From Escherichia coli (GTDB taxonomy: Bacteria; Pseudomonadota; Gammaproteobacteria; Enterobacterales; Enterobacteriaceae): a DNA stretch of 64,000 bases. The stretch lies in NCBI RefSeq assembly GCF_017348835.2, contig NZ_CP071375.1. One strand, given 5' to 3'. Shown piece after piece: positions 9,001-12,000 of this stretch. The first letter of the stretch is position 1. Every line of letters begins with the position of its first letter. The position numbers were made by a program.

Positions 9001-12000
9001 GCCACACTTATTTTCCAGGCTCGCTTCGGCGGGCCTTTTTTGTATCTGCGCCACGCCCGGCGCATATCAACCACAGAGCCTTTCGGGGGTGAGCTTACGG
9101 AGTGGTCAGTGTGACTTTCTCTGTGGGCAGATCGCTCCCGGGCGTTGGCTCACCCACCCAAAGGAACGTCACGATGTTTGGAATCTTCAAAAAGAAAACC
9201 CGCAGAGCGGCAGCGGAAATTAAAAAGTTTGAGAAACGCGATCTGGCACAGGCGGTGATTAACGCTGCATACCTGGTGGCCTATGCAGATGGTGAATGCG
9301 AGGCATCCGAGAAAGCGAAGATCGAACAGGTCTTACGTAATCAGCCTGCGTTGTCTGCGTTTACCTCGGAAATTAATGCGATTAGCGCAACTATTATCGG
9401 TCAGCTGGATACCAATTTTAAAATTGGTCGTCGTGCCGCGTTACGCGAGAGTGAGGATGTGAAACACGATACGCGTGAAGCGGAAGATGTGCTGGATGTG
9501 GCGGTGGCCATTGCGGAGGCAGACGGCGAAATTGAGCCGGAAGAGCGCAAGGTGCTGGAAGAGATTGCCGGTGTTCTGGGTCTTCGTCTGGAGAATCACC
9601 TGTGACGGTAAAACTGCGCCTGGCTGTGGCTGCACTCCTGCTGTTTCTGGTGGTGATGGTGGATTTCACCAGCAGAATCATGTCGGTGCTGGCGGATGGG
9701 GTGCTGGTCTGCGGCATTGTGGTATTGCTGTGGCCGGTGATAAAAAGAAACAGCCTGCATAATGCTTGATTTTTTTGTTTGCTGTTTATTAAAAACACTT
9801 CTGCATGGTGAATCCCCCTGTGCGGAGGGGCGATCAGCAACCAGGTATATGGGATAATCGCGGATTCAGGTGCTGATACTGAATTCACCGGGAGGCACCC
9901 GGCACCATGCAAGAAAAAGAATGTGCATGCAAACATGCCCCTCTCCGGAGGGGCTTTTTTATGGGTAAAAAATGCCCGAATGGGTTCGGGCAATAGCATG
10001 AGATACTGATATTGTTGTGTTGTTATCGTGTGGATTTTAACCAGGGTTTATCAGGCTGCGCAACTGCGTGGCCTTTTTTCATTTCTTGGGCTGTAGTCCC
10101 CGTGTGTCATTCAGGCTTCCGGACTACAGCCCACTCCATATCTGATTTAATACACTATCCCGGCCGGGAGGAATAATGACATTTAAACATTATGATGTTG
10201 TCAGGGCGGCGTCGCCGTCAGACCTTGCGGAAAAGCTGACACACAAACTGAAAGAGGGCTGGCAGCCATATGGCGGACCGGTTGCCATTACGCCGTACAC
10301 ACTGATGCAGGCGGTGGCTATTGAAGGAGATCCACAGGTCGGCCCTTCATCTGAGCCGGACTGGTTCTACGTGGTTGTGCTTGCCGGACAGTCCAACGGC
10401 ATGGCCTACGGTGAAGGGCTTCCGTTACCGGATTCTTACGATGCTCCGGATCCGCGCATTAAACAGCTGGCGCGCCGCAGCACGGTAACTCCGGGTGGAG
10501 AGAGTTGTACGTATAACGACATCATCCCGGCTGACCACTGTCTGCATGATGTGCAGGATATGAGTACGCTGAATCATCCGAAGGCAGACCTGAGCAAAGG
10601 GCAGTACGGCTGTGTCGGCCAGGGCTTACATATTGCCAAAAAACTGCTTCCGTATATCCCGAATAACGCGGGGATCCTGCTGGTACCATGCTGTCGTGGT
10701 GGTTCGGCATTCACCCAGGGCGCGGAGGGGACATTCAGTGCGGACACGGGGGCCAGCCAGGATTCGGCACGCTGGGGTGTGGGTAAACCGTTATATCAGG
10801 ACCTGATTGCGCGCACTAAAGCTGCATTACAGAAGAACCCGAAAAATGTGTTGCTGGCGGTGTGCTGGATGCAGGGAGAGTTTGACATGAGCGCCGCCAC
10901 CCACGCACAGCAACCTGCGCTGTTTACAGCCATGCTGACACAGTTTCGTGCTGACCTCTCCGTGTTTAACGCGCAGTGCCATGGTGGCAGTGCTGCAGAT
11001 GTGCCGTGGATTTGTGGTGACACGACGTATTACTGGAAAAATACATACGCTACCCAGTACGACACCGTGTACGGCGGGTATAAAAACAGGGAGAGTGAGG
11101 GCGTTTATTTTGTGCCCTTCATGACAGACGGTAACGGTGTCAATACCGCCACTAACGCGCCGGCAGAAGATCCGGATATTCCGGCATCAGGATATTACGG
11201 TGCGGCATCGAGAACGAATGGAAACCAGGTATCATCAAACCGCCCGACACATTTCAGTTCATGGGCGCGCAGGAGCATTATTCCGGATCGTCTGGCAACC
11301 GCTATTCTGAACGCAGCCGGGCGCACCTCAGCCTTCATCAGTGGTAAGGCACCGGAAATCAAACCCTCGCCCGGCGGCAACACGCCATCGGGTCCGTCTG
11401 CAGATACGTCCGTTCGCACAATCTCCCTGCTGCCGGCAGACGGAGAGGCTGCTGCGCAGGGCTGGAGCATTAAGGATGGCGGAATTCAGTTGTCAGATGG
11501 TGTATTTAAGATCACCAAGCAGAGCAATAAAACCTGGTCCCTGACGCATCCGGTGGATGACGCAATTACCCTGCTGACACAGGGCGGCAGACTGACCTGT
11601 AAGTTCCGCCTGTCAGGCGCGCTGACCAACAATCAGTTCGGGCTGGGGATTTATCTGTATACGGATGCTCCCGTTCCTGATGGTGTGGCGATGACGGGTA
11701 CCGGTAATCCGTTCCTGATGTCGTACTTCACTCAGACCACTGACGGCAGAGTGAATCTGATGCATCACAGGAAAGCCGGAAACACGAAGCTGGGGGAGTT
11801 CGGCGATTACGGTAACGACTGGCAGACGCTGGAGCTGGTGTTCACCGCCGGCAGTGCCACGGTTACTCCGAAACTGAATGGAGTGGCTGGCCCGGCATTC
11901 CAGGTTATAAAAGACAGTCTGACACTGGGACTGAATGCGCTGACGCTGACGGATGTTACAAAAAATGCAGCGTATGGCGTTGAGATAGAAAGTCTGGTGC

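Follow-up and report, generated by a model that had tools for sequence, protein, structure and literature searches.

The window analysed here, 64,000 nucleotides of one strand of Escherichia coli contig NZ_CP071375.1 (assembly GCF_017348835.2), carries in a prophage late region two overlapping genes, tciA and tciB, both on the + strand. The open reading frame (ORF) list, ARAGORN and Pfam place the pair between a Q antiterminator gene and transfer RNA (tRNA) genes upstream, and nanS-p and the lysis genes downstream. An intrinsic terminator 3' of the tRNAs (~9017..9040, terminator scan) is followed by a structured 5' leader identified with a covariance model (9043..9173), by tciA (9174..9605), which encodes a 143-aa TerB-fold protein, and by tciB (9602..9769), which encodes a 55-aa DUF3927 protein predicted to form a membrane hairpin. 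We show below that these elements form a mobile cassette with the terminator as its 5' border, which in lambdoid phages sits downstream of Q (and of tRNAs, where present) and upstream of the lysis genes. The best-supported reading of the pair is that of a minimal TerB-plus-membrane-anchor unit made in lytic growth.

The tciA gene extends from an ATG at 9174 to a TGA at 9603-9605. Its product matched the Pfam TerB family (PF05099) over residues 26-138 with 57.1 bits against a cutoff of 24.4 (E=2.8e-15), as well as PHROG 632 (E=1.8e-68). In a profile comparison, residues 15-137 aligned with residues 21-144 of TerB in the Protein Data Bank (PDB) entry 2JXU (E=3.2e-14). The AlphaFold2 (AF2) model is an all-helical bundle, with a mean predicted local distance difference test score (pLDDT) of 90.6 and a predicted template modelling score (pTM) of 0.84, and its top Foldseek match is the TerB-like structure 2H5N (probability 1.0, template modelling score 0.56-0.65). 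TciA is acidic (isoelectric point 5.1), its N-terminal helix is basic and modelled less confidently, and two ADGExxxxE repeats are found at residues 38 and 116. Taken together, these data establish TciA as a helical bundle of the TerB fold, soluble and acidic, consisting of a single domain whose N-terminal helix is basic, in agreement with the fold assigned to it in a preliminary description of this locus.

The GTG start codon of tciB overlaps the tciA stop codon as GTGA, at the coordinates first given for it, and a Shine-Dalgarno (SD) sequence, GGAG, lies 8 nt upstream. TciB matched Pfam DUF3927 (PF13064; 62.3 bits versus 25, E=4.3e-17) and PHROG 1470, labelled 'TciB-like' (E=4e-30). The two hydrophobic segments announced for it were recovered by hydropathy analysis (approximately residues 3-24 and 28-48); K/R residues lie at either end, suggesting by the positive-inside rule a hairpin with both termini inside. 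In an AF2 model of a fused TciA-TciB chain, the helices of the TciB portion (pLDDT 46-64) are broken at D32-G33, where confidence is low. We then turned to a collection comprising one genome per species, in which 20 loci carry a TciA relative (36-99% identity); these come from Enterobacterales, one Pseudomonas and two metagenome-assembled genomes labelled otherwise. All 20 loci possess tciB, starting from 4 nt before to 3 nt after the tciA stop codon and recognised by hidden Markov model with E-values of 1e-13 to 1e-34, so the association of the small ORF with TerB-like genes raised in the preliminary description holds throughout. The ratio of nonsynonymous to synonymous substitution rates (dN/dS) of tciB has a median of 0.24 (153 pairs). 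Little or no variation is seen in the DFT(S/G)xxxSxLADG core, which continues as DFT(S/G)...S.LADG...P..K, in residue P45 and in the flanking basic residues. The DUF3927 family as a whole is small; 110 of its clusters (50% identity) were counted among 1.84 billion representatives, and a length of 45-65 aa is shared by almost all of them, TciB itself having 50-55 aa. These results support tciB as a real, translationally coupled small membrane ORF, and point to it as an obligate partner of this TerB clade.

The pair had been presented as an uncharacterised system, with a small ORF lacking annotation. Neither statement survived comparison with existing records, since RefSeq lists the small ORF as the DUF3927 family protein WP_000216636.1, and the two genes correspond to tciA and tciB of phage P1, where tciA-tciB-tciC sit among tRNA genes (P1 record), 3' of the C1-controlled ban promoter. 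The window proteins are 42% (TciA) and 50% (TciB) identical to their P1 counterparts. Both genes are annotated in RefSeq, one as 'tellurite resistance TerB family protein' and the other as 'DUF3927 family protein', and were counted in 789 of the 5,426 complete E. coli genomes; one strain matches the query with 100% identity. Homologues in the cryptic prophages CP-933R and CP-933P of enterohaemorrhagic E. coli are pointed out already in the record of phage P7, the annotation of JLK-2012 reads Q, three tRNAs, tciA, tciB, yjhS, S, R, Rz, and PPyecE_EH1910 has a 'TciA/TerB-like protein'. With its P1 names and its Pfam, PHROG and RefSeq entries, the pair therefore represents a gene family that is already known, and the leader RNA appears to be the only element that has escaped description.

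By contrast, the likening of this region to the late region of Shiga toxin (Stx) phages, with the pair as cargo, proved exact at the nucleotide level. By blastn, window positions 8712-9052 align with positions 2081-2420 of phage 933W (L004), covering its putative tRNA promoter pT, its tRNAs and the 'terminator upstream of the stx genes', and window positions 9785-10273 align with 933W from 87 nt past stxB into the nanS-p esterase gene. Since both flanks align, a 732-bp cassette (9053-9784) stands in for the 1369-bp stxAB cassette in the same insertion slot, with tRNAs and terminator on one side and STnc100, nanS-p and lysis genes on the other. Past the common terminator, 933W (L004 ~2410-2420, compared with window 9041-9052) retains ~10 nt from the start of the leader (TATCTGCGCC) and then diverges into the stxA upstream region, indicating that the recombination junction lies inside leader hairpin P1. 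This upstream region is ~50 nt long and without leader match, whereas the window leader measures ~130 nt. The cargoes differ as well, stxAB encoding a secreted AB5 toxin and tciAB an unrelated pair predicted to be intracellular and membrane-associated. In blastn, the homologous stretch starts at 8980 for JLK-2012 and at 9017 for PPyecE_EH1910. The terminator is kept ahead of the leader in other genera, and the DNA 5' of it is unrelated from locus to locus.

The leader itself spans the ~130 nt from the terminator to the tciA ATG and is as conserved across genera as coding sequence. It can form four helices, P1 (9048-52/9059-63), P2 (9071-78/9119-26), P4 (9104-07/9113-16) and P3 (9087-95/9147-55), and an anti-SD element, CCUUU (9079-83), can pair with the SD sequence AAAGG (9160-64). 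In an alignment of 69 distinct sequences, fitted to P1, P2 and P4 and of modest diversity (seed effective number 1.8), 95.6% of cells were paired versus 32-51% in slid controls, and 17 pairs displayed compensatory changes versus 4-8 in these controls; none of 500 shuffles reached the observed values. Covariation was detected in 5 of the 5 pairs of P1, 6/8 of P2 and 3/9 of P3, a helix that lies outside the covariance model and to which the alignment was therefore not fitted. The CCUUU/SD pairing is 99% paired and invariant, which makes covariation impossible. P2 and P3 cross, and thus imply a pseudoknot or alternative folds; the forced P1+P2 fold has -41.5 kcal/mol and the forced P1+anti-SD+P3 fold -54.2 kcal/mol, compared with an unconstrained minimum free energy of -57.7 kcal/mol. 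The G-U pairs on the + strand and the indels of 1-2 nt argue for a sense-strand RNA rather than a coding extension. Indeed, an N-terminal coding extension of TciA, the 167-192-aa form present in some databases, was rejected because of 1- and 2-nt indels and a protein sequence that is not conserved. The Pas small RNAs (sRNAs) were likewise discarded as candidates for the leader, PasA/PasC lying between esterase and holin and PasD being STnc100-like. A 5.5-kb Rfam scan returned no match to the leader at E<0.1, and a permissive scan of 191 nt, up to E=10, almost exclusively weak and partial matches (<=19 bits) centred on the preceding terminator hairpin, with a few matches within the leader itself, all <=14 bits. 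We conclude that the comparative evidence supports a structured RNA with an anti-SD element that is absent from Rfam.

The covariance model matched the window at 9043-9188 with 161.8 bits and found the leader before every lambdoid-type tciA, including loci whose TciA is 41-45% identical, and in jumbo phages (77-96 bits). Among viral contigs, tciA was the next gene in 179 of the 203 matches to a leader-derived pattern. A diverged second copy was found in the lysis cassette of the window itself, at 13746..13892 on the + strand (46.8 bits, E=1.3e-10), before an antirepressor-like gene (ATG 13878) whose product is a P22_AR_N (ant-like) protein; this copy retains P1, P2 and P3 via compensatory changes. 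The same gene in 933W and PPyecE is also preceded by a leader copy according to the covariance model, and further diverged copies lie ahead of a KilAC antirepressor and of an uncharacterised 246-aa protein. These copies (L004 7719-7869, L002 8454-8604, L142 8852-9005, L099 5478-5608) each have a terminator-like hairpin on their 5' side. Their location before ant-like and other genes indicates that the leader is a common front end for late-operon cargo genes.

Two observations bear on how the leader travels. In some loci (L096, L099, L117 and others) TciA is only 42-45% identical overall, yet the leader is common to all of them, and the first ~10 tciA codons (MFGIFKKKTR) are exactly those of the window in L096 and nearly so in L099 and L117. 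The conservation of these codons suggests either mosaic recombination in the 5' end of the gene or an RNA-level constraint reaching into the coding start. In addition, the chromosome of E. coli Ecol_AZ159 (L005 3494-3740) holds a leader remnant (100.8 bits) outside a prophage, adjoining an IS200/IS605 transposase between fucP-side genes and hypT, and followed by a truncated RefSeq pseudogene annotated 'DUF3927 domain-containing'.

Upstream of the cassette, all on the + strand, lie a Q82-type Q antiterminator gene (7787..8608; PF03589, E=4.7e-50; RefSeq 'antitermination protein') and a candidate late promoter PR' (8614..8641; TTGATT, 16 nt, TGgTAAATT, with extended -10), which was read by eye and went uncalled in a consensus promoter scan. 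They are followed by a tR'-like intrinsic terminator 3' of PR' (8689..8716, terminator scan) and by the homologue of the 933W promoter pT (8714..8742), contained in the blastn block described above and annotated in 933W at 2083-2111. Three tRNA positions come next. The first is an ileZ-like tRNA with a CAT anticodon (8752..8827; ARAGORN, Rfam, and RefSeq as tRNA-Ile), and the last an argO-like tRNA-Arg (TCT) (8928..9004; ARAGORN, Rfam). The middle one (~8835..8914) is a degenerate argN-like remnant, recognised by alignment to 933W and L087 as the middle tRNA of the 933W ileZ-argN-argO trio; its acceptor stem is intact, its anticodon and T arms are scrambled, and both ARAGORN and Rfam left it uncalled. 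tRNAs also flank tciAB in P1, JLK-2012 and jumbo phages. A functional link between tRNAs and tciAB was rejected, however, as tRNA adjacency is found in only 5/20 species loci and tciA has no excess of rare codons (0.7 per 100), and we treat this adjacency as common cargo-slot geography, a property of the slot rather than of the pair.

Downstream of the cassette, an STnc100 sRNA of the EcOnc27/sRNA103 family (9774..9966, +; RF02076, 145.8 bits versus a gathering score of 47) converges with the anti-GcvB sRNA AgvB (9967..10028, - strand; RF02702, 96.5 bits, identical to the consensus). They precede the nanS-p type esterase gene (10176..12026, +; Pfam DUF1737 + SASA + DUF6645), itself followed by a P21-type holin, DUF1327 and lysozyme (Pfam). 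The terminator scan called 9 sites versus 2.8 expected, and both hairpins once proposed to bracket the gene pair, at 9017-9036 and 9937-9954, are among them. The second hairpin, however, is the 3' end of STnc100, and the terminator at 9937-9960 is thus that of the sRNA and not a bracket of the pair. STnc100 starts 5 nt past the tciB stop codon, so that it could also come from processing of the tciAB transcript. Its candidacy as a 3' untranslated region sRNA of the module was rejected: it lies behind tciB in only 2/20 species loci and also behind stx2B, and therefore belongs to the slot and not to tciAB. In Stx2 phages, too, STnc100 is directly 3' of stx2B (PMC12711010; PMC12370729). According to a 2026 preprint, such prophages have PasA/PasC-type sRNAs between esterase and holin, an interval that corresponds to 12026-12403 in the window. 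In the prophage early region, a match to the sok antitoxin RNA (5170-5344; Rfam, 113.5 bits), together with a RefSeq Hok/Gef protein at the corresponding place in strain PE164, indicates a hok/sok module.

Beyond E. coli, the gene directly upstream of the pair in other species encodes Q of PF06323, PF03589 (three loci) or PF06530. The presence of three unrelated Q families at this position makes the Q-dependent late expression put forward in the preliminary description likely. Holins lie 3' of the pair in two species loci, and Klebsiella phage 5 LV-2017 has the order Q, tciA(B), endolysin. Among the 20 species loci, a tciC-like third ORF was detected only in the P1-like locus L101, and possibly in L098. 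The pair is also carried by virulent phages, both N4-like (Pollock, FSL SP-076), where it lies between small unnamed ORFs beside dUTPase and an N4 gp24-like ATPase, and jumbo (Erwinia/Salmonella phages ChrisDB, Asesino, Parshik and pSal-SNUABM-04), where it stands amid annotated tRNA genes in 3/4 records. Pantoea phage LIET2 has a diverged TciB. The Pseudomonas phages AF and Ebordelon combine TerB with a different small single-pass protein (L109 1632-1853 and L112 1643-1846); the two are mutually homologous (YGxQTERETxY...FVGCMV) and unrelated to DUF3927. In the N4-like Vibrio phage BUCT194 (L114 1-1877), two TerB genes directly enclose one annotated 'TerC/Alx family metal homeostasis membrane protein', an array that constitutes a TerB-TerC unit carried by a phage. 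The combination of TerB with a membrane partner thus recurs, in TerB-TerC, BUCT194, AF and Ebordelon.

Comparison with known systems delineates what is particular to the window. It shares with P1 tciABC the gene order, the start of tciB at the tciA stop codon, the proximity of phage tRNA genes and the status of non-essential accessory cargo. P1 has tciC, whereas the window has no ORF 3' of tciB, STnc100 starting at 9774, and the P1 pair lies in the region 3' of the ban promoter while the window pair is placed in a presumably Q-dependent late operon. With the ter operon terZABCDE, the window shares a full-length homologue of the single-domain Klebsiella pneumoniae TerB (2JXU) and a membrane-protein gene directly 3' of the TerB gene, terC in one case and tciB in the other. 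However, the TerC partner is multi-pass and TciB is an unrelated 55-aa DUF3927 hairpin, and the neighbours in the window are Q, tRNAs, DUF3927, sRNAs and nanS-p, with no TerZ, TerA, TerC, TerD or TerE gene nearby. Finally, the tciA leader resembles SD-sequestering leaders such as RNA thermometers and riboswitch platforms in that CCUUU can pair with the SD beside a covarying helix and in that the alternatives P2 and P3 are both supported, a resemblance only, with no Rfam match.

We put at about even odds the reading, as a whole, of a lytic-cycle TerB and membrane-partner pair that is Q-antiterminated and leader-gated. Transcription that starts further upstream, for instance at the tRNA promoter, would end at the terminator at 9017-9040, so that the pair would be made mainly from Q-antiterminated PR' transcripts after induction. 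The leader would then gate tciA translation, with the CCUUU anti-SD, placed beside the SD by P3, competing or combining with P2. TciB would reside in the inner membrane with both termini in the cytoplasm and recruit TciA, and the two proteins may amount to the TerB-TerC membrane unit of ter operons pared down to its minimum; an interaction of TerB with TerC is reported in PMC11003894, which cites Turkovicova 2016. In the weakest step, the complex would buffer stress on the inner membrane or the proton-motive force during lytic growth, for example by guarding against a depolarisation that would fire the holin early. Such a role would recall the phenotypes that ter operons show towards colicins and phages, and would aid phage production rather than protect the lysogen. 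We hold this buffering until lysis, proposed by analogy with ter-operon phenotypes and from synteny with the lysis genes, only tentatively. A broader proposal strikes us as equally doubtful, though possible: terminator, leader and gene would constitute a general, hitherto undescribed cassette by which lambdoid and jumbo phages insert accessory genes (tciAB, ant-like and others) into antiterminated operons, the leader would be a new class of cis-regulatory RNA (P2/P3 pseudoknot or switch plus anti-SD) gating translation, and TciA-TciB would stabilise the energised membrane until the holin fires.

Several results weigh against this lytic-cycle reading. Q dependence, the topology of TciB and a role in membrane stress are all inferred, on the basis of synteny and homology only, and literature searches for functional studies of tciA/tciB, DUF3927 or prophage TerB returned only annotation-level mentions, in line with the earlier statement that the function of the pair is undescribed. 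Expression timing differs among phage types, between the ban region of P1 and the lambdoid late operon. In a CRISPR interference screen of P1, tciA, tciB and tciC score as non-essential (PMC10695390), and, within the tested subgroup of P1-like plasmids, roughly one in two has lost the operon (PMC9603915). In phage 434 (L116 1612-2844), the same Q-to-esterase slot holds TciB but no TciA, and the neighbours of TciB there are a 247-aa membrane protein without Pfam match and a 62-aa membrane protein. TerB+DUF3927 fusions (P0124, P0186, P0248, P0292, P0297) were rejected as Rosetta-stone evidence, being frameshift or chimeric assembly products. The AF2 model of frameshift-fused TciA-TciB, computed with a block alignment, reached a pLDDT of only about 50 for the TciB part and a pTM of 0.63, and hence lends no structural support to a specific TciA-TciB contact. 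Unlike the window, P1, P7 and D6, as well as the N4-like phages, yielded no leader with the covariance model, showing that the leader is dispensable for tciAB as such.

The strongest competitor is that the pair protects the lysogen: expressed from the prophage at a low level, it would exclude superinfecting phages, cause abortive infection or provide tolerance to colicin or tellurite, in the manner of the Phi/PacB/Te phenotypes of ter. tciABC is variable and dispensable in P1-like plasmids, as defence cargo often is, and read-through from the tRNA promoter is conceivable. TerB-containing ter operons are reported, in passages of PMC7371120 and PMC9603915, to inhibit phage and to resist colicin. 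Against this stands above all the presence of the pair in N4-like and jumbo phages; being obligately lytic, these form no lysogen, and they therefore argue for a role in the lytic cycle and not in lysogen defence. The place of the P1 pair, 3' of the C1-controlled ban promoter, also speaks for lytic use. To our knowledge, TerB alone does not confer ter phenotypes. In addition, the pair lies directly 3' of an intrinsic terminator, and a consensus scan detected no promoter for tciAB on the + strand, a weak negative because the same scan missed PR'. PADLOC-DB gave no convincing match, the best for TciA being PDC-S48 (E=0.0038, 36 residues), with none for TciB. The superinfection exclusion or abortive infection suggested in the preliminary description is thus disfavoured at the lysogen level, and we regard lysogen protection as unlikely.

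Slightly less probable still is a toxin-antidote or lysis accessory, in which TciB would be a depolarising pinholin- or Hok-like peptide and TciA a cytoplasmic inhibitor or regulator tuning lysis. In favour of this reading, TciB has 55 aa, two hydrophobic segments and a basic C-terminus, and is encoded in a late operon; the pair lies 39-109 nt 5' of the holin in some species, and phage 434 has TciB among small membrane proteins in the absence of TciA. However, TciB resembles no holin, Hok or other toxin family in Pfam, the pair also occurs in non-lysis contexts (near ban in P1, and in N4-like phages), and the soluble-first order, the tight coupling and the strict co-occurrence would fit a stoichiometric complex equally well.

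We would give even less credence to a metal or ion helper, in which TciA would bind a divalent cation via its ADGExxxxE repeats and, with TciB, adjust Mn2+/Ca2+/Zn2+ for replication. The two acidic ADGE repeats are conserved, BUCT194 has its TerC/Alx metal homeostasis protein flanked by two TerB genes, and terC of K. pneumoniae is reported to contribute to zinc resistance (PMC12054061). Yet cation binding by TciA is putative, being deduced from the repeats, TciB with its 55 aa is too small for a transporter by itself, and the leader is unlike any metal riboswitch in Rfam. Finally, the idea that only the TerB gene is real and the small ORF a chance one, prompted by its short length, GTG start, hydrophobicity and low complexity and by the masking of its first 20 residues in tblastn, is effectively refuted by the Pfam match (E=4e-17), the same position in 20/20 species, the dN/dS of 0.24, the invariant DFT(S/G)xxxSxLADG and the SD 8 nt upstream.

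As a gene pair, tciAB is an ordinary, named and widely annotated phage accessory module. Its significance lies elsewhere. Because tciAB and stxAB are interchangeable at one precise recombination slot, the pair is useful for tracing the gain and loss of the toxin by Stx phages, and its occurrence in virulent phages makes a role in the lytic cycle more likely than one in lysogen defence. The leader, common to tciA and ant genes and not in Rfam, is a small but genuine lead on the translation control of cargo in antiterminated operons. For the function of TerB, a question of long standing in work on ter, a two-protein minimal version from an inducible prophage would offer a tractable model.

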